Shown here piece by piece: positions 3,258-19,817 of a stretch of 64,000 bases of DNA. Position numbers and translations under genes: made by a program. The notes beneath the pieces were generated by a model. It did no database searches. It was not told the DNA's origin and saw nothing but the letters and a program-made list of their open reading frames with translations. The DNA comes from an uncultured Alphaproteobacteria bacterium (GTDB lineage Bacteria > Pseudomonadota > Alphaproteobacteria > Methylaequorales > Methylaequoraceae): the NCBI GenBank assembly GCA_902563305.1, contig CACEWP010000005.1, forward strand, positions 4,211 through 68,210, given 5' to 3'. Every line of letters begins with the position of its first letter. Within the stretch, counting starts at the first letter, position 1.

Positions 3258-4304
3258 TTATTCTATTATAATTTCTACCACCTCATTCTTTGAGCCCAAT
3301 CTCATCCTTGGACCCCAACAGCCCGCACCACAAGAAACAAAAAGTATGGAGCCGAATTTCTTATAAATACCATAAATTTCACTAAACTTAAGTTTAACTA
3401 ATAGATTAAATGGAAATATCTGCCCTTTATGAGTATGTCCAGCTAACATTAAGTCAATTTTAGATGGAATTTTTCTCCAAAGAGAGGGTTTGTGGGTAAG
3501 AATTATATTCAATTTTTCTTTTTTATAATTATTCATAACTATAAGTTTTTTTTTTTCAGTTGTCATATTATCTCCGACTCCTATTATATTGAGTCCTTTA
3601 GATTTAAAAGTTTTCCCATCTATATTTTTAATATTAAACTCACAAAGCTTCTTAGATATTCTATCCCAATCTGCTAAATAATGCTCATGATTTCCTGTAA
3701 CAAAAAGAACTGGTTTATTAATTAAATTAAAAACCTCTAAATTTTGTAAATCAAAATTATTTAAGTCTATTAGATCACCACCAATTAGTAGGATATCAAA
3801 ATTTATTTTTTTTAACTCATTAAAGATTTTTTGTAGATGTTTTTCTGAATTTGATCCTAGATGGACATCACTTATGAAGACTAAATTAACCCTTTTTTTT
3901 ATTTTATTTGATGAAATCCTCACAGTTTTTAATCTAACTGAACGTCCATTAATAATACTTATTATGCTAAAATAAGAAATAGTTGCAAAACATATTAAAG
4001 CTAAGTAAAAATCATTGGTATTAAAGAAAAGTTTAAATGTTAATGCTGTTAAAGCAACATACAAACTAATAAAGCCTATCCCCATACCTTCAAATATTAG
4101 TAATTGTAAAAATTTTGGTTTAGTTGCAGACCTGAAATAAAAAAAAATAACAACATAAAAAAAAAAACATTGAATGATGGATGATAATCCAAAAATACTA
4201 CTTCCCGAAAAAAATGAAATGAGAATATCGTAGGGTAAACAATATATTAAGTAAGTTAATGATATTCCGATAAAATTAGAAATAATTTTTTTTTTGGTAA
4301 ACAT
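3258..4304 (-). CDS. Membrane-anchored metallophosphoesterase (YkuE-like)
   Basis: N-terminal TM helices followed by the calcineurin-like motifs SDVHLG, GGDLID, GNHEH and GHTHKGQ. Confidence 0.8.
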   Translation of the reverse strand: MFTKKKIISNFIGISLTYLIYCLPYDILISFFSGSSIFGLSSIIQCFFFYVVIFFYFRSATKPKFLQLLIFEGMGIGFISLYVALTALTFKLFFNTNDFYLALICFATISYFSIISIINGRSVRLKTVRISSNKIKKRVNLVFISDVHLGSNSEKHLQKIFNELKKINFDILLIGGDLIDLNNFDLQNLEVFNLINKPVLFVTGNHEHYLADWDRISKKLCEFNIKNIDGKTFKSKGLNIIGVGDNMTTEKKKLIVMNNYKKEKLNIILTHKPSLWRKIPSKIDLMLAGHTHKGQIFPFNLLVKLKFSEIYGIYKKFGSILFVSCGAGCWGPRMRLGSKNEVVEIIIE

Positions 4305-4401
4305 AATAAATTTAGTTAATGTTATATAGTTATTAATATAATCGGAAATATAAATATTCTATTTTCGAGCTGTTTTAAACTAATATCTTTTGTACGGGTT
4401 G

Positions 4402-4560
4402 ATGAAAAATTATTTTAAAGAAAGTATCCATCAAGAATTTGGAAGATTTCTTAGAGATGAAATGGAAGATATTGAAAAAGAAGAATATATACGCTCTGAA
4501 AGATATAAAAGTTCTATAAAGCTTATATCAAAAATATTCCAAAAAAACTCCATAAAGTAA
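4402..4560 (+). CDS. Candidate 52-aa charged helical small ORF
   Basis: ATG...TAA open frame in an otherwise empty 470-nt intergenic region (MKNYFKESIHQEFGRFLRDEMEDIEKEEYIR...). The SD is weak. Confidence 0.2.
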   Translation: MKNYFKESIHQEFGRFLRDEMEDIEKEEYIRSERYKSSIKLISKIFQKNSIK

Positions 4561-4777
4561 ATTGTCTTAACATTAATTATGTTATTTTTCATAAGCTAAT
4601 TGAAAATTTACCTTAATAAAAGTTCAATTATAATAGATTAAAAACGCACTGCTTTAATAAAATTTACTTTAAAAAAAATTTAATCAGTGTTTTTCAAAAA
4701 CTTAATAAGTAAGTTTTAGATTTTTTTTAATATTCAAACTATTGATAGCTCATTTTCAAAATTATATAATTGAATGT

Positions 4778-5398
4778 ATGTTGTTTAATCTTGAAAATAT
4801 TCAATATAAGTATGAGGATAAAGTTTTTTTAAAAGAGTTGAGCTTAACTATTGAAAGCGGAAATCATCTTTTAATTCATGGTAGATCAGGTTCTGGTAAA
4901 AGTACACTAATTAATCTCATGACAGGCCTATTAAGGACAGTTTATGGAAGTATAACTTTTGAAAATATCAATTACAATAATTTAACTGATTCAGATTTAG
5001 ATGTTTTAAGGTCCAAGAATTTTGGATTTATTTTTCAGAGGTTACATTTAATTGGTCACTTAAACGTTAAACAAAATATTTCAATTGCAATTAACAAAAA
5101 TAATTGTCTTTGTACTGAGGAATTAATTAAAGATCTTGGTCTTGAAAAATTAAGAAATAAAAAAGTAAGTGATTTAAGTGTTGGTGAGGCTCAAAGAGTT
5201 GCGGTTGCTCGCGGAGTGGTTAATAATCCAAAAGTCATCTTTGCTGACGAACCTACATCAGCATTGGACAATTCTAATTCTAAAAAAGTAATGGATCTTA
5301 TATTATCTCAAACAAAGAAAACAAATTCAACATTGATTGTTTCTACTCATGATGAAAGAATCAAAAATTATTTTTCAAAAGTAATAAGGCTAAAATAA
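4778..5398 (+). CDS. ABC transporter ATP-binding protein (MacB/LolD-type)
   Basis: Walker A GRSGSGKST, signature LSVGEAQR, Walker B IFADEPT. The ATG at 4778 gives the canonical N-terminus. The stop overlaps the next gene's start (ATAATG at 5398). Confidence 0.9.
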   Translation: MLFNLENIQYKYEDKVFLKELSLTIESGNHLLIHGRSGSGKSTLINLMTGLLRTVYGSITFENINYNNLTDSDLDVLRSKNFGFIFQRLHLIGHLNVKQNISIAINKNNCLCTEELIKDLGLEKLRNKKVSDLSVGEAQRVAVARGVVNNPKVIFADEPTSALDNSNSKKVMDLILSQTKKTNSTLIVSTHDERIKNYFSKVIRLK

Positions 5399-6738
5399 TG
5401 ACAGACCTAAGTTTTGTATTCTATTCCTTAAAGTCACGATGGTTGAATTGCTTGTTGTCAATTTTTCTAACTGCATTTGGTGTTTCTATAGCAATATTAA
5501 TTACTCAGTTTGGGAATAATATAAAAGATCGGCTTAAGAAAGATGGAGCAAATATTGATCTTGTTGTGGGAGCAAAAGGTAGTCCAATTCAATTAATCTT
5601 ATCTTCGGTTTATCACATTGATATTCCAACTGGGAATATCTCATGGGAAGCTGCTCAAGATTTAATAAAACATCCTCAAATAAAAAAAGCAATACCTGTT
5701 GCATTAGGAGACAATTGGAAAGGAAATAGAATTGTGGGTACAACAATTGATTATTTAGAACATTATAATGCTGAACTTAAAGAAGGTAAGATATGGGATA
5801 AAAAGTTTGAAGTCGTTGTGGGCTCATCTGTTAAATTAGATATAAATGATCAAATTGTAGGTGCTCATGGTCTTTATGACGGTGGAGAGGTTCATGGAGA
5901 TAAAAAATATAGAGTTACTGGTATAATCAAACCCACTAAGACCGTCCTTGATAGACTTATTTTTACTTCTATCAACTCAGTTCTAGATATTCATGGTATA
6001 GAAAATATTGATGACAAAGAGGTTTTTAAATCAAATCACGATCATCATGACGATCATAAAACGCATAGTGAAAGCAGTCATATTAATACTAAGAGTCATC
6101 ATGATCATCATGATGAAGATTCACATGACCACGAAAAATCTGAGCACGGGCACGCAGGTAACAATCAAGTTAGTAAGCACGGTGAAGCAAAAATGGCAGA
6201 GATAACTGCATTATTGTTAACAACAAGTTCACCAATTGCAAATATTAATCTTCCTAGATTTATTAATAGGAATACTTCCTTCCAGGCTGCTAATCCGGCT
6301 CTGGAGATCACACGTTTAACATCTATGCTTGGAATAGGAGCCAAAAGTTTTGGGATATTATCTTTTATTTTAATTATTATAGCAGCTTTAAGTGTATTTT
6401 CTGGTTTAGCTGCAAATCTTGAAAATCGCATGTGTGATTTAGCAATTTTAAGAGCTTTAGGCTATACAAAAAATAGGATATTTAAGATTATATGTCTTGA
6501 TGGGATGATGATAGTTATTGGTGGTATATTGATTGGAGTAATATTTAGCGTGATAACATTTGAGACATTAAATTATTCAATTGTCACTCTAAACACAGTT
6601 CAAGCAAAATTTAGTTTAACATTAGATTTATTTTTTATAATTCTTGTTGTTTTTCTTTCAGGAATTGTGGCTGCAGTTTTTCCTGCATTACGTGCATCTA
6701 AAATAAGTGTTGCAAAACAATTATCACAAAATATATGA
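5398..6738 (+). CDS. ABC transporter permease, FtsX/MacB family, with His-rich periplasmic insert
   Basis: N-terminal TM, large periplasmic domain and a C-terminal FtsX-type TM bundle. The insert is NHDHHDDHKTHSESSHINTKSHHDHHDEDSHDHEKSEHGH at about nt 6034-6156. Confidence 0.85.
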   Translation: MTDLSFVFYSLKSRWLNCLLSIFLTAFGVSIAILITQFGNNIKDRLKKDGANIDLVVGAKGSPIQLILSSVYHIDIPTGNISWEAAQDLIKHPQIKKAIPVALGDNWKGNRIVGTTIDYLEHYNAELKEGKIWDKKFEVVVGSSVKLDINDQIVGAHGLYDGGEVHGDKKYRVTGIIKPTKTVLDRLIFTSINSVLDIHGIENIDDKEVFKSNHDHHDDHKTHSESSHINTKSHHDHHDEDSHDHEKSEHGHAGNNQVSKHGEAKMAEITALLLTTSSPIANINLPRFINRNTSFQAANPALEITRLTSMLGIGAKSFGILSFILIIIAALSVFSGLAANLENRMCDLAILRALGYTKNRIFKIICLDGMMIVIGGILIGVIFSVITFETLNYSIVTLNTVQAKFSLTLDLFFIILVVFLSGIVAAVFPALRASKISVAKQLSQNI

Positions 6739-6744
6739 ATAATT

Positions 6745-7365
6745 ATGACCATTAATAATTTCTATTTTTCTGGTAGTCTAATTTTTAAATTATGCTTAAT
6801 TCTGTTTTTTTCGATAAACTTTAAGTTGAAAAATGCCCACAGTTTTATTTTAAAAGGCAATGGTCCACAAGTTAAGAACATTGTAGATAATGTTTTTTCT
6901 ACCGAATCTTTTGATGATGAGTTTGATCTTCAATACGATATGCTTTCGAGCGTAGAGGATTTCATAAATTTGCCTGAAGGTGGAACACCATGGGAAGTAT
7001 TCGCTGACACTGGTATGGATGAATATATATTTGAAGATAAGGAAGGGTTCGAATGGACAGGTGTTCGTCCAAAATTTACTGAAAATATAAAAATGTTAGA
7101 AGATAAAAATATATTAGTTCAAGGCTACATGTTTCCTCTCGATCAAAACGAAAAGCAACAAACTTTCTTACTCATCCCATTTCCAGTTCACTGTCCATAT
7201 TATCCGCATGCTACATCGAATTTGATTATTGAAGTCCATGCTAACAAACCAATTCTTTTTTCATATGACCCTATTAATATTGAAGGAAAATTGGAGTTAG
7301 TTCCTAAAGATGATTTATACAATATCTTTTTTCGTCTAAAAAATGCTAAACTAGCATCCAAATAA
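6745..7365 (+). CDS. DUF3299-like exported protein
   Basis: Signal-like N-terminus. The motif block VQGYMFPLD...TFLLIPFPVHCPYYPH...NLIIEV resembles the DUF3299 pattern (GfmvPle...FlLvP...C.H.ppPp.NqiV.V) as I recall it. Confidence 0.6.
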   Translation: MTINNFYFSGSLIFKLCLILFFSINFKLKNAHSFILKGNGPQVKNIVDNVFSTESFDDEFDLQYDMLSSVEDFINLPEGGTPWEVFADTGMDEYIFEDKEGFEWTGVRPKFTENIKMLEDKNILVQGYMFPLDQNEKQQTFLLIPFPVHCPYYPHATSNLIIEVHANKPILFSYDPINIEGKLELVPKDDLYNIFFRLKNAKLASK

Positions 7366-7377
7366 ACAATAAAAAAT

Positions 7378-7806
7378 CTATATACATTGATTGCATATTC
7401 CATTGACCTCTAGGTTCCAGTTCAACGGCATAAACGTTTTTTCTTCTACATTTTCTTTGATTGCTGAAGGTAACTCACACATATGCGATTCAATAACCTT
7501 GCCGCATACATTGCAAATCATAAACTGAGAACCCTTATGGAAATGATCAGCTTTACAAGCTGAATAGGCATTTAAACTTTGAATTCTGTGAATGAAATTA
7601 TGTGATTGCCAAAATTCTATTGCTCTGTAAATGGTTGGTGGTTTAGGATTATTTAAAACTCTTGCTAATTTTTTTAACACTTCGTAAGCTTTAAGTGGTT
7701 TTTCACTATTAGCAATTACCCGTAACACATTTTTTCTTGGTTTTGTATACCTATGTTTATTTTTATTACAAAAATCTATTGCTTTCTTTTCAATGGTTTT
7801 GGTCAT
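7378..7806 (-). CDS. zur: Fur-family metalloregulator, probably Zur
   Basis: 142 aa with a winged-helix N-terminus and CNVCGK...CNQC structural-zinc Cys pairs. It is convergent with the His-rich ABC operon. Confidence 0.75.
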   Translation of the reverse strand: MTKTIEKKAIDFCNKNKHRYTKPRKNVLRVIANSEKPLKAYEVLKKLARVLNNPKPPTIYRAIEFWQSHNFIHRIQSLNAYSACKADHFHKGSQFMICNVCGKVIESHMCELPSAIKENVEEKTFMPLNWNLEVNGICNQCI

Positions 7807-7822
7807 AAATATCTTATATTTT

Positions 7823-7843
7823 TTTAGTTACATTATAACATTT
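7823..7843 (-). promoter_or_regulatory. Candidate Zur box in the zur/yqhA divergent promoter
   Basis: The minus strand reads AAATGTTATAATGTAACTAAA, against the remembered proteobacterial Zur consensus AAATGTTATAATATAACATTT. It lies about 20-35 nt upstream of the zur start. Confidence 0.4.
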
Positions 7844-7953
7844 TATAAACTTATAATAAAATTATATTATTATATTTTTGATTAAATTTTTTGTTTAAAA
7901 GTATCTTATTTTCTTATTGATTTTAATAAAAAAAGATTGTTAATAAATTAAAT

Positions 7954-8469
7954 ATGTTAAAGAATTTTGAAAAATTTATAGAAAACCTAATGTTTGCGTC
8001 TAGATGGTTGTTAGCTCCATTTTATTTTGGTCTTATAATATCACTCTTTTTTTTATTAATAGTTTTTATTAAGGAAATTATTCATTATATAAGCCATTTC
8101 AGCACAGACGAGACTGAACTTATTTTATTTATTCTTACACTGATTGATTTATCTTTTGCCGGTAATCTATTAATCATAGTTATTTTTTCAGGATATGAAA
8201 ATTTCGTTTCTAAAATAAATATTAGGAATCATGAAGACAAACCAGAGTGGATGGGAACAGTTGATTTTGGTGGTCTAAAGTTAAAATTGATTTCTTCGAT
8301 TGTTGCTATTTCAGGGATTCATTTGTTAAAGATTTTTTTCGGACTTGAGAATTACACTCAAAGTCAAATACTTCTTTTTATAGCAGTGCATTTTACTTTT
8401 GTCTTAAGTGGAGTTTTGTTAGCATATATGGATTCATTAATAGCAAAAAGTAAATTAAAAATGAAATAA
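7954..8469 (+). CDS. yqhA: UPF0114/YqhA-family inner-membrane protein
   Basis: N-terminal FASRWLLAPFYFGL motif and 4 TM helices typical of YqhA. Confidence 0.75.
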   Translation: MLKNFEKFIENLMFASRWLLAPFYFGLIISLFFLLIVFIKEIIHYISHFSTDETELILFILTLIDLSFAGNLLIIVIFSGYENFVSKINIRNHEDKPEWMGTVDFGGLKLKLISSIVAISGIHLLKIFFGLENYTQSQILLFIAVHFTFVLSGVLLAYMDSLIAKSKLKMK

Positions 8470-8799: not shown

Positions 8800-9714
8800 T
8801 CAAGGGATTACATTATAATTAATTGGAAAAAAACCTTCTACTTTTTCAGTCTTTGGTGCAGTATGATAAAAAGAAATTGTTAATTTATTATTGTTTCTAT
8901 ATATCTTAAAATTAGTCGACATATTATTACTCATCTTATAAGTCTTAATTTTTATATTGAAAAATTTCTTTGTTAATTTTTCGATATTAATACACTCTGC
9001 ACGCAACCTACTAGTGTCAGGACTAAATAAAATAATTCTTTCTAACTTCTGGTTTTTATATTTGATATCATTTAACATATCATGAAATTCTTTTGTTTTG
9101 ATTGAATTATTTTTGGGAATACTATTGTTATGTTTAATAAATGTTTTATTTTTAAAATTAAATATAATTAAAAAGCATGTAAAAATCCCATAAGTGTAAT
9201 AATATTCATTATTAGAAATTTTGATCAATTCATTTTTTGCAGTTTTTATTTTTCCATTGGAAGAGATTCCAGTGTAATTTTCTGATTTGTAAGGACGAAA
9301 TTTAATGTATCTATTTTTTCGATAATTAATAATAGCGATATAGTCATTTAGTTTTTTTTTCGATAACTCTTTAATTAAGAAATTGTAAATATCTTTTTCA
9401 TACTTTTGATAATTCCTCGTAAATTTAATTAAAGTTGGATTTATTTTATATTGTCGACTAATTTTTAAACCTAGATTAGTTAAATGAAAATTAAGAGAAT
9501 CTTTATCAAAAAATAAAAATCTATTTTTTCTTAATTCACTAAAGATAATCAAGTACGATTTTACCGTTTGTTCTAAAGGTTTATTTCTAAAGTTTGATAA
9601 CTGGATTAGTTTAGGAAAAAATATTAAGGAAATTATTTGTGTTAAGGTTGCCTTTGATCCTAGAGGAAAGTAATACTGAAAATAAGAAAATATGATTTTT
9701 AAATATACAATCAC
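8800..9714 (-). CDS. Hypothetical protein (ORFan-like, Lys/Asn/Ile-rich)
   Basis: 304-aa ORF, visibly more AT-rich than its neighbours. No motif recognised. Confidence 0.5.
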   Translation of the reverse strand: MIVYLKIIFSYFQYYFPLGSKATLTQIISLIFFPKLIQLSNFRNKPLEQTVKSYLIIFSELRKNRFLFFDKDSLNFHLTNLGLKISRQYKINPTLIKFTRNYQKYEKDIYNFLIKELSKKKLNDYIAIINYRKNRYIKFRPYKSENYTGISSNGKIKTAKNELIKISNNEYYYTYGIFTCFLIIFNFKNKTFIKHNNSIPKNNSIKTKEFHDMLNDIKYKNQKLERIILFSPDTSRLRAECINIEKLTKKFFNIKIKTYKMSNNMSTNFKIYRNNNKLTISFYHTAPKTEKVEGFFPINYNVIP

Positions 9715-9928: not shown

Positions 9929-10777
9929 CTATATCATACAAGTATGCATTTTTTGGGGTGGTGTTGTTTCATCTTTTATCTTATCAAGACCATCGGTGTT
10001 GAAGTCTTTACTTTTTTCTTTTGGAATTGCCAATATATTTTCCTGACAAATATTTGGGAAATAATTAATATTTGATTTGTTGTGATTGTGAGGATTGAAT
10101 AGATACGATAATACCCAGTATAATGCATAACCAGACTTTAAAAGTAATTTATTTAATTTATTTGGGAAAACTCTTTGATTTTCAATCCACATGATTGGTC
10201 TGAATTTATTTATGAATAATTTACCTCCATTAAGGACATCTAATTCCATACCTTCCACATCAATCTTAACAAAATTACATTTTTTTAAATGTAAAAATTT
10301 ATCAAGATTGGTGATTGATATTTTTTGTTTAGCATCACTTTTATCAGGAAAGAAAGGATTATCTTTATTCTGAACAAGACTGACACCGCCAAAGTTGTCT
10401 ACAACATTATAGTTAATGAATGTTAAATCTATAGTTGTTTTTTCTAACCCCACGCCTGATCGAAATAACTCAATATTATATTTTTTATTTTTCTCTACAT
10501 TCATTTTTAATATTTCATAAATTTCTTTTTGAGGTTCAAATGAAAAAACTTTCCCTGATTTACCGATTTTCTTTAAGAATGGAACTGTAAACGCTCCAAT
10601 ATTGGACCCGATATCAAAAACGTAGTCACCTTTTTTGATAAATTTCATAATAATTGACAACTCAATTTCTGAATACTCTCCATATAATTTTAAACTGTTT
10701 CCAATATACAAGTCTGAACTTAGAGAATGAAACATTCCATGTTTAGTCTTTAATAAATCTACATTACAACTCATCAT
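9929..10777 (-). CDS. FkbM-family SAM-dependent methyltransferase
   Basis: FDIGSNIGAFTVPF (SAM-binding glycine loop), VFSFEPQKEIYEIL and FVKIDVEGMELDVLNG match the FkbM family pattern. Confidence 0.75.
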   Translation of the reverse strand: MMSCNVDLLKTKHGMFHSLSSDLYIGNSLKLYGEYSEIELSIIMKFIKKGDYVFDIGSNIGAFTVPFLKKIGKSGKVFSFEPQKEIYEILKMNVEKNKKYNIELFRSGVGLEKTTIDLTFINYNVVDNFGGVSLVQNKDNPFFPDKSDAKQKISITNLDKFLHLKKCNFVKIDVEGMELDVLNGGKLFINKFRPIMWIENQRVFPNKLNKLLLKSGYALYWVLSYLFNPHNHNKSNINYFPNICQENILAIPKEKSKDFNTDGLDKIKDETTPPQKMHTCMI

Positions 10778-10975
10778 TTTAATTTCTTCTTAATTATCGG
10801 TTATTACTTCAAATACAAACTTTATTAAAATCTAGCAATTTTAATACCATTTTGAATCTTGTAGTTTGTCTTCTATCTCTTTGTATTGTTCATTCAACTC
10901 TGATCGTATGTCTTCGTTTCATTTGCCCTTATTTGTTAAAGAGTGAATCCTCTTAAACCCTTTGTGAGTCTCCCT

Positions 10976-11008
10976 AAAACAAACAAGGGGGAACAATTGC
11001 CCCCCCTT
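10976..11008 (-). terminator. Intrinsic terminator at the 3' end of ssrA
   Basis: The minus strand reads CAAGGGGGGG-CAATTG-TTCCCCCTTG followed by TTTGTTTT. Confidence 0.6.
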
Positions 11009-11250
11009 GCCGATGAGACTTCTGTTGCCCGGTGGTCCCACAACCGCGCTTTCTTAATTTAATTAAGCAGCGAGTGCCATTTCATTATCATTGGCATTTA
11101 TATGTTTAGTCCGATAACGTTGGTACTATTCCGGGCAAAGTTTTTGACTATTCACACGCACGTCGATCCTGTTTCACCCCCATAAAATGTGGTGGAGGTG
11201 CCGGGTACCGCCCCCGGGTCCGCATCGGCTCAAAATCAAACGTTTATTGC
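10976..11250 (-). ncRNA. ssrA: Two-piece (permuted) tmRNA gene, alphaproteobacterial type
   Basis: The minus strand reads acceptor piece ...GCCGATGCGGACCCGGGGGCGGTACCCGGCACCTCCACCA, an 8-nt spacer, then coding piece GGGGGTGAAACAGGATCGACG.... The tag reading frame GCC AAT GAT AAT GAA ATG GCA CTC GCT GCT TAA (ANDNEMALAA*) is at 11063-11095. The 5' boundary is approximate. Confidence 0.85.
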
Positions 11251-11356
11251 CATAGCTGAAATTCAGCAATTTAATAATAATGAATGATAAAAAAAATAAA
11301 ACCTATAAATTGTTTTAGTATAAAAAAAAGCTAATATAGAAAAATCAGAGTTTTTT

Positions 11357-19304: not shown

Positions 19305-19817
19305 ATGACAGAATCGCACTCAAAACATATTCTTTCTATTATGGTTGATAATGAGCCAGGGGTTTTGGCCAGGGTAGTGGGATTGTTTTCAGGAAGAGGT
19401 TATAATATAGAAAGCTTATCAGTTTCTGAGGTTGATTCAGATAAATTTCTCTCTAGAGTGACGATTGTCACTTCTGGAACCAAGAATATTATTGATCAGA
19501 TAAAAGCACAATTGCTCAAACTCATACCCGTCCATAATCTTATAGATATTTCTGAGTTAAAGACCTTTATAGGAAAAGAGTTGATTTTAATCAAATTGGA
19601 TGTAAAAAAGAAGTCAGTTTCAAAAATTTACAAACATGTCAAAGATTATGGAGCAAAAATTTTATTCGATAACAGAACTGAAATGATCATCGAATTTTCA
19701 GGCACCCCCTCTGAGATTTCATCTATGATTAAAAAATTAAGATCATTTAACATTATAGAGTTAACAAGGTCTGGTTTAGTATCGATAGCATTAGGAAAAG
19801 ATTATATTAAAAAATAA
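19305..19817 (+). CDS. ilvN: Acetolactate synthase small (regulatory) subunit
   Basis: ACT-domain start HILSIMVDNEPGVLARVVGLFSGRGYNIESL. Confidence 0.95.
   Translation: MTESHSKHILSIMVDNEPGVLARVVGLFSGRGYNIESLSVSEVDSDKFLSRVTIVTSGTKNIIDQIKAQLLKLIPVHNLIDISELKTFIGKELILIKLDVKKKSVSKIYKHVKDYGAKILFDNRTEMIIEFSGTPSEISSMIKKLRSFNIIELTRSGLVSIALGKDYIKK

Follow-up and report, generated by a model that had tools for sequence, protein, structure and literature searches.

The closest described relatives of the system reported here are Zur-linked operons built around MacB-like transporters. In Vibrio, ZrgABC(DE) supports growth under zinc limitation, and ZrgA carries a His-rich loop to which several Zn ions bind (PMC9820375, PMC9817125); its affinity for them is low (PMC9820375; compare PA4063, PMC8561739). 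The PA4063–PA4066 operon of Pseudomonas aeruginosa is Zur-regulated and induced by zinc limitation (PMC4542158). Here we analyse a locus in a 64,000-nucleotide stretch of DNA from an uncultured marine alphaproteobacterium (contig CACEWP010000005.1). This whole stretch is called the window, and coordinates are window positions unless one of the related loci, which carry L numbers, is named. At this locus the His-rich element belongs to the permease itself. We consider it probable that the locus encodes a ZrgA-independent, Zur-associated MacB-like (type VII) zinc-starvation system, in which the His/acidic loop of the permease does the job of the ZrgA loop.

The window is AT-rich (~28% GC) and gene-dense. 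Four genes, for an ATP-binding cassette (ABC) ATPase, a MacB/FtsX-type permease, a DUF3299 protein and a convergent Zur-like regulator, occupy positions 4778–7806; the first three form an operon adjoining the gene of the Zur-like repressor. All four had been named in an original prediction made from the sequence alone, and the Pfam and NCBIfam profile scores recover each of them in its place:

4778–5398, plus strand: ABC ATPase subunit, 206 residues (Pfam ABC_tran 105.6 bits; MacB/LolD/FtsE class)
5398–6738, plus strand: type VII (MacB/FtsX-type) ABC permease, 446 residues (MacB_PCD 30.3 bits, cut-off 27; FtsX 46.8 bits, cut-off 25.5)
5995–6204, plus strand: coding region of the His/Asp/Glu-rich disordered periplasmic loop, permease residues 200–269, between invariant H199 and T270
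6745–7365, plus strand: DUF3299 protein, exported or membrane-anchored, 206 residues (Pfam DUF3299 36.7 bits, cut-off 22)
7378–7806, minus strand: Zur-like Fur-family regulator, 142 residues, convergent with the operon (Pfam FUR 49.9 bits)

The permease, its His-rich loop and the Zrg systems

The permease belongs to the type VII ABC (MacB/FtsX) superfamily, and its cognate MacB/LolD/FtsE-class ATPase adjoins it, the permease start codon overlapping the ATPase stop codon. A search of the PDB with an AlphaFold2 model of the permease returned only LolCDE, MacB, YtrEF, HrtBA and FtsEX. In the same model the topology is that of an FtsX-type module of four transmembrane helices (TM), in which a periplasmic core domain like that of MacB separates TM1 from TM2. 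The score against the LolC/LolE model is far below the level of membership (TIGR02212 lolCE 37.5 bits, cut-off 362.45; separate LolE and LolC models 22 bits or less), and NCBIfam holds no equivalog for either the permease or the DUF3299 protein. For the ATPase the best NCBIfam similarities were to LolD, FtsE, DevA and the MacB nucleotide-binding domain, all below their equivalog cut-offs; its start codon, ATG at 4778, is kept in the related loci L003, L088 and L089.

Between TM1 and TM2 the permease carries a disordered loop (predicted local distance difference test, pLDDT, ~26 over residues 205–264). Fifteen of its 70 residues (200–269) are His (21%), and the loop core (residues 213–252, nucleotides 6034–6153) has 14 His in 40 residues (35%), against 1.6% His in the other long open reading frames (ORFs) of the window. 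The peptide quoted in the original prediction is exact, although its figure of roughly 40% His is slightly high. Repeat expansion as the origin of the loop was rejected, as Tandem Repeats Finder detected only one 9-nt, two-copy repeat in the loop DNA. Around the loop, 36 diverse homologues all keep the periplasmic residues D75, D105, H157, H166, D185 and H199. As had been predicted, neither the locus nor the rest of the 64-kb window encodes a separate His-rich protein.

The PA4066 fragment of PDB entry 4hsp gave access to two loci of the known systems, one in Pseudomonas that is syntenic with PA4063–66 (L086) and a zrg locus of Vibrio (L087). Each encodes ZrgA (Pfam PF10986), an ATPase, a permease and a DUF3299 protein. 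The window permease is homologous to both of their permeases over the full length, with 24–25% identity (E values 1e-36 to 1e-41), and D105, H157, H166, D185 and H199 are common to the two types. Near TM1 the signatures differ, VGAKGSPLQLILSxxYHxDxPTGN in window-type and VGARSGxVNLLLYSVFRIGNATNN in Zrg-type permeases. The low identity and the different signatures fit better with the window-type permeases being a distant sister branch of the Zrg/PA4063–66 permeases than with orthology to ZrgB/PA4065.

The kinship itself, which the original prediction had proposed, is borne out by a shared plan: a split type VII pump, in which the ATPase is separate from a 4-TM permease with a large periplasmic domain, a DUF3299 protein, encoded downstream, that has the invariant Cys in common, and a link to Zur, here in the form of an adjoining Zur-like regulator gene. 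The window locus differs in lacking both ZrgA (PF10986) and a ZrgD-like gene, in the His-rich loop of its permease, and in having its Zur box 5′ of zur rather than of the operon. The DUF3299 protein is weakly matched by 4hsp, which is PA4066, and on its sequence is the predicted counterpart of ZrgE/PA4066. Its residues C150, G127 and G181 are invariant, Pseudomonas and Vibrio homologues included, and its gene lies directly downstream of the permease gene in 60 of 83 related loci.

The two branches place the His-rich element reciprocally. None of 80 Zrg-type loci has a permease with a His-rich window (maximum 4 His per 30 residues), and 77 of them encode a His-rich ZrgA (median 16 His); this side of the comparison is taxonomically narrow, the loci being Pseudomonas-dominated and a metagenome scan having given only Pseudomonas-like sequences at least 79% identical. 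Conversely, a ZrgA homologue was found in none of 85 window-type loci, where the sole ZrgA matches are compositional and pair the ZrgA His repeat with the permease loops themselves. The His-rich element therefore appears to sit in the permease loop in one sister branch, as the original prediction had located it, and in a separate ZrgA in the other. The further claim that this segment had been fused into the permease fares less well. We found no similarity of the loop to the folded domain of ZrgA, and the compositional character of the likeness, together with the low identity of the permeases, points to parallel solutions rather than to a recent fusion.

Loop composition across homologues

An exhaustive search of 1.84 billion cluster representatives recovered 690 relatives of the permease at E ≤ 1e-30, and a scan of one genome per species placed a relative in at least 600 species. 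In all of the 120 best database homologues listed, a 40-residue window with 8–16 His occupies the same position. The relatives include marine Alphaproteobacteria, metagenome-assembled genomes of Pelagibacteraceae and ‘Rickettsiales', Sphingobacterium, Pedobacter, Burkholderiales, Latescibacterota and Calditrichia. The design with a His-loop and no ZrgA also occurs on contigs of 4.8–7.6 Mb and in genomes of up to 69% GC. Such a distribution across large genomes and several phyla is not specific to streamlining, so the suggestion that the locus is a compact variant consistent with genome streamlining does not hold. Judged from these sequences, the architecture is the norm for a large, old subfamily and probably ancestral to a broad family.

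To compare the loops themselves, 230 homologues were aligned with MAFFT, down to ~34% identity and covering 26–69% GC and several phyla. The loop was delimited by the alignment anchors H199 and T270, both invariant in all 230. Loop length ranges from 7 to 176 residues (median 48); the median number of His in the loop is 9, and ~80% of the homologues have at least 5 there. The pooled composition is 20% H, 17.5% E and 14% D. His makes up 14–19% of the loop against 2.1–2.4% of the remainder of the same proteins across the whole GC range, and the His fraction of the loop shows no significant dependence on GC (rho −0.15, p 0.18). The longest loops belong to the low-GC marine members (median 70 residues).

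The original prediction had held that hypervariable, low-complexity sequence in orthologues would speak against it. The loop is indeed literally of that kind, yet its His content is conserved across phyla and GC, which argues for a function of the loop. Hypervariable sequence combined with constrained composition is the pattern expected of a flexible metal-binding antenna rather than of mutational drift, and the loop may be read in this way.

In two loci (L075, 4845–6355; L081, 4757–6347) short, His-poor permease loops of 14–17 residues lie beside a classical znuA (PF01297). Each is a compact zinc island with a znuA that has its own His-rich loop, a second ABC ATPase, zur and the permease family member. 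The notion that short-loop members are compensated by a ZrgA-like neighbour was rejected, the His-rich neighbours in both loci being ordinary ZnuA.

The Zur-like regulator and the sequences upstream

Among NCBIfam models the regulator scores highest with Zur (PRK11639, 85.7 bits, against 32.9 or less for Fur or PerR models), although below the Zur equivalog cut-off of 167. Against the PDB its best matches are 7dh7 (3e-22) and E. coli Zur (4mtd, 5e-16), with PerR at 7e-6 and Fur at 5e-5. Zur thus scores ahead of Fur and PerR in both comparisons, in agreement with the Zur-like identity originally proposed. In 25 of 83 loci, from Alphaproteobacteria as well as Bacteroidota, the permease gene has a fur-family gene within 3 kb. 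As for znuABC, whose presence or absence had been suggested as a check, the search covered the window: no ZnuA-like ORF (PF01297) was found in the 64 kb at E ≤ 1, and the locus is not assigned to ZnuABC.

The following regulatory features are predicted:

4742–4770, plus strand: sigma-70-like operon promoter TTGATA-17-TATAAT, the best match in 4300–8000 (11 of 12 positions)
7826–7840, no strand assigned: Zur-box-like palindrome AGTTACATTATAACA in the zur 5′ region, one mismatch to TGTTAYNNNRTAACA

Validated alphaproteobacterial Zur boxes have the core TGTTAT-N3-ATAACA (PMC4176598). The Zur-box-like sequence reported originally, GTTACATTATAACATTT at 7827–7843, is present 19 nt upstream of the zur ATG, likewise with one mismatch to the core. 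The palindrome at 7826–7840 sits between a candidate promoter (7897–7869, minus strand) and the zur ATG, and it is kept in the 83%-identical relative L088 within an otherwise diverging spacer. Across the window, one-mismatch matches are not in excess over chance (2 found, 1.2 expected). The other match, TTTTATTCGATAACA at 19660–19674 (plus strand), lies inside an ORF (19305–19817) and is probably a chance match. We therefore treat the palindrome at 7826–7840 as a putative, candidate autoregulatory Zur box.

The related loci give a clearer signal. We scanned 1.1 Mb from the 83 loci for the palindromic core TGTTAYNNNRTAACA with at most one mismatch, and 14 of the 29 matches fell in the 4% of the sequence just upstream of ATPase or fur-family genes, where 1.2 were expected (~12-fold). 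Perfect boxes lie directly upstream of the ATPase gene in L010, L011, L013, L039 and L054, and a shared box occupies the divergent spacer between the fur-family gene and the operon in L001, L002 and L009. Over 15 kb of the high-GC Phenylobacterium locus L079 there is a single such site, 40 nt 5′ of the ATPase gene, and its core is that of the Caulobacter znuK box.

Some of these loci carry further genes. In L001 and L002, which represent the commonest marine clade, a 121-residue membrane protein with an N-terminal CCGIPL motif and no Pfam family is encoded between the Zur box and the ATPase gene (6989–7354 in both); it may be an extra metal-handling subunit. CDF, HMA and TonB-receptor genes are found near the operon in L001, L002 and L004. 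In eight Pedobacter loci (L029, L033, L043, L049, L061, L067, L073 and L077) a fur-family gene lies co-directional and immediately downstream of the DUF3299 gene, apparently as a fourth gene of the operon. The proteobacterial-type Zur box was found in none of these eight loci, so Bacteroidota probably use a different operator.

Upstream of the window operon, the promoter block AACTATTGATAGC...AATTATATAAT is invariant in L088 and L089. Its −10 box ends 7 nt before the ATPase ATG, which leaves no room for a Shine-Dalgarno sequence, and the predicted operon mRNA may thus be leaderless or nearly so. The inverted repeat TAACAT-N5-ATGTTA reported earlier is present at 4568–4584 with the sequence given. 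A role as Zur operator was rejected: in a Zur box the half-sites stand in the opposite order, and the repeat is absent from L089, though L089 keeps the small ORF that precedes it in the window. The repeat starts 8 nt after the stop codon of this ORF and is followed by TTTTT, and together these features are better read as a weak terminator hairpin. The small ORF itself (4402–4560, plus strand) encodes ~52 residues (MKNYFKESIHQEFGRFLRDEMEDIEKEEY...) and belongs to no Pfam family; L003 (235–387) and L089 contain clear homologues of it.

Closer to the operon, 5′ of the promoter, a block of ~60 nt (AAAA.G.A..GCTTT...ATTTACTTT.AAAAA.TTTAATCAG, 4643–4702, plus strand) is shared with L088 and L089. 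At its end stands the palindrome GTTTTTCAAAAAC (4689–4701), which resembles a symmetric Zur-box variant. An RNA element in the 470-nt upstream spacer was discarded, with no Rfam match and no significant fold (z −0.52). At the other end of the operon, only 12 nt separate the stop codons of the convergent DUF3299 and zur genes (7365–7378), and a terminator-like structure is predicted nowhere in 4300–8000, so that transcription of the operon and of zur may run through into, or interfere with, each other.

Beyond zur, the most AT-rich stretch of the window (8–10 kb, 24% GC) contains a 304-residue ORF without a Pfam match (8800–9714, minus strand), which adjoins an FkbM-type methyltransferase (9929–10777). 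The equivalent place in L003 is occupied by a restriction-modification pair, and the region may be variable or an island. Further on lies a permuted, two-piece tmRNA gene of the alphaproteobacterial type (10972–11282, minus strand; tag peptide ANDNEMALAA).

Proposed mechanism, competing readings and significance

Under the reading that we favour, the system would be expressed under zinc limitation, and the long, disordered His/Asp/Glu-rich loop of the permease would act in the periplasm as a tethered low-affinity antenna that concentrates Zn(II) or a similar divalent metal, the same job as that of the His-rich loop of the separate ZrgA/PA4063 in Vibrio and Pseudomonas. The metal would then be handed to a structured periplasmic site made of D105, H157, H166, D185 and H199, plus H73/D75 in this branch. 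The DUF3299 protein, with its invariant Cys, may join in this hand-off. Mechanotransmission driven by ATP at the ATPase dimer would finally move or release the metal for uptake. The data themselves show the gene content, the fold class, the place and disorder of the loop, the conservation of its composition throughout the family, the reciprocal absence of ZrgA and, in relatives, the association with Zur genes and Zur boxes; that the ligand is zinc, how it is handed on and that the net direction is inward are what we infer.

Several points weigh against this reading. The type VII ABC transporters characterised so far export their substrates or work from the periplasmic side, and none is known to import an ion across the inner membrane. 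The AlphaFold2 model of the permease is of low confidence (mean pLDDT 60.5). About 11% of the 230 family members have two His or fewer in the loop, and the sequence and length of the loop vary even between strains that are 83–95% identical (48 to 74 residues). No canonical Zur box was found upstream of the window operon, and none overlaps its sigma-70-like promoter; the only box precedes zur, so we infer direct zinc control of this operon from its relatives. The experimental case made for export by a Pseudomonas homologue, considered next, belongs here as well.

The same parts might instead form a periplasm-facing exporter that, when zinc is scarce, removes a metallophore, a metal chelate or a metal such as Co that has been mis-incorporated, with the loop binding the outgoing species. 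The fold class is in keeping with this, as the characterised members of MacB/LolCDE export or extract substrates, and so are the CDF efflux genes near the operon in three related loci. A pyochelin-cobalt exporter role has moreover been argued experimentally for the homologue PA4064/65 of P. aeruginosa, from genetic and metal-content data (PMC11481552). We nevertheless think export unlikely. No gene for a MacA-like adaptor or an outer-membrane channel is seen in the operon, nor are metallophore biosynthesis genes seen among the annotated flanking genes, and Zur normally represses genes of uptake, not of efflux. The homologous Vibrio system promotes growth under zinc limitation, which is consistent with uptake (PMC9820375), and at 24–25% identity between the window permease and PA4065-type proteins, function need not transfer. 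Handling of another divalent metal (Ni, Co, Cu or Mn), with the adjoining Fur-family regulator sensing that metal instead of zinc, would agree with the lack of metal specificity of His/Asp/Glu-rich loops, with a regulator that falls below the Zur equivalog cut-off and with the binding of both Zn and Co by PA4063 (PMC11481552, PMC8561739). We give it little credence, because the regulator matches a Zur structure at least 16 orders of magnitude better than Fur or PerR, the enriched operator is a classical Zur box whose core is identical to experimentally validated Caulobacter Zur sites, and the operon stands beside znuA and zur in L075 and L081.

Two other explanations deny the loop its proposed origin or its role. 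If the His-rich stretch were a low-complexity linker of no functional consequence, and the operon an envelope machine of the Lol/FtsX kind that happens to adjoin zur and plays no part in metal homeostasis, then a hypervariable, disordered and indel-prone loop, members without His and a window operon with no preceding Zur box would cause no surprise. Mutational drift leaves unexplained, however, a 7- to 9-fold enrichment of His over the remainder of the protein that holds regardless of GC. Fur-family genes and Zur boxes also recur at such loci in distant phyla, and the LolC/E equivalog score lies far under its cut-off, which together make the linker very improbable. Hardly credible is the version put forward originally, that a ZrgA/PA4063 protein was recently fused into the permease through genome streamlining. 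The missing zrgA, the AT-rich, gene-dense genome and the greater loop length of low-GC members would suit it, but it is contradicted by the occurrence of the same architecture in large genomes of several phyla; the ZrgA folded domain has left no trace in the loop, the His repeats matching in composition only, and the His-loop and Zrg branches are deeply diverged, with different conserved motifs.

The preferred reading, of a zinc-starvation system with a permease-borne metal-binding loop, also sets the locus apart from other known transporters. With ZnuA it shares a flexible, acidic, His-rich periplasmic loop tied to Zur-controlled zinc acquisition; ZnuA, however, is the soluble binding protein of the type II importer ZnuBC, whereas the loop described here is part of a type VII permease. 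MacB and LolCDE resemble it in the MacB_PCD and FtsX domains of the permease, in being the best structural matches and in the LolD/FtsE/MacB class of the ATPase. The window operon differs from them in having no adaptor or outer-membrane partner genes and equivalog scores far below the cut-offs, and two features are peculiar to its branch, the invariant set of periplasmic His and Asp residues and the His-rich loop. ZnuGHI of Caulobacter crescentus is likewise a Zur-repressed ABC operon of an alphaproteobacterium, for which no binding protein is annotated (PMC4176598), and the core of its validated Zur box is that of the boxes upstream of window-type operons. It is annotated in KEGG as an ABC-2-type transporter with two permease subunits, a distinction made by annotation and not by sequence. 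That ZnuGHI is a member of the family is unlikely given this annotation, and no Caulobacter homologue is among the best 120 matches listed.

Our searches of the literature on PA4065, Zrg, DUF3299 and MacB turned up neither a His-rich permease loop nor a branch without ZrgA, so that this widespread design apparently has gone undescribed. It is possible, though we advance it only tentatively, that the family is a distinct and widespread class of zinc-acquisition machine that works without a binding protein: the type VII pump would catch the metal with the poly-His loop tethered to it and pass it on through an invariant His/Asp site and a DUF3299 partner that bears a Cys.

For MacB-like, Zur-regulated systems, import has been proposed in Vibrio and export in Pseudomonas. 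A sister family with a permease-borne His element and without ZrgA constitutes a natural experiment in this respect, and its existence suggests that the site of action of the His-rich element is the periplasmic domain of the permease. The invariant residues single out D105, H157, H166, D185 and H199 of the permease and C150 of the DUF3299 protein for mutation, and the family includes cultivable, genetically tractable hosts (Sphingobacterium, Pedobacter and Phenylobacterium), which makes the question of import versus export directly testable. Should the self-contained capture mechanism prove true, the interest of these hosts and specific residues for that question would rise.

The findings bear also on marine trace-metal ecology. 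A survey of metal transporters in SAR11 does not discuss the His-loop system (PMC4771312), and the zinc-uptake capacity of streamlined bacterioplankton may therefore be under-counted. If the family is indeed such a zinc-acquisition machine, it could provide abundant SAR11-like marine bacteria and many Bacteroidota with one of their main routes of high-affinity zinc uptake.

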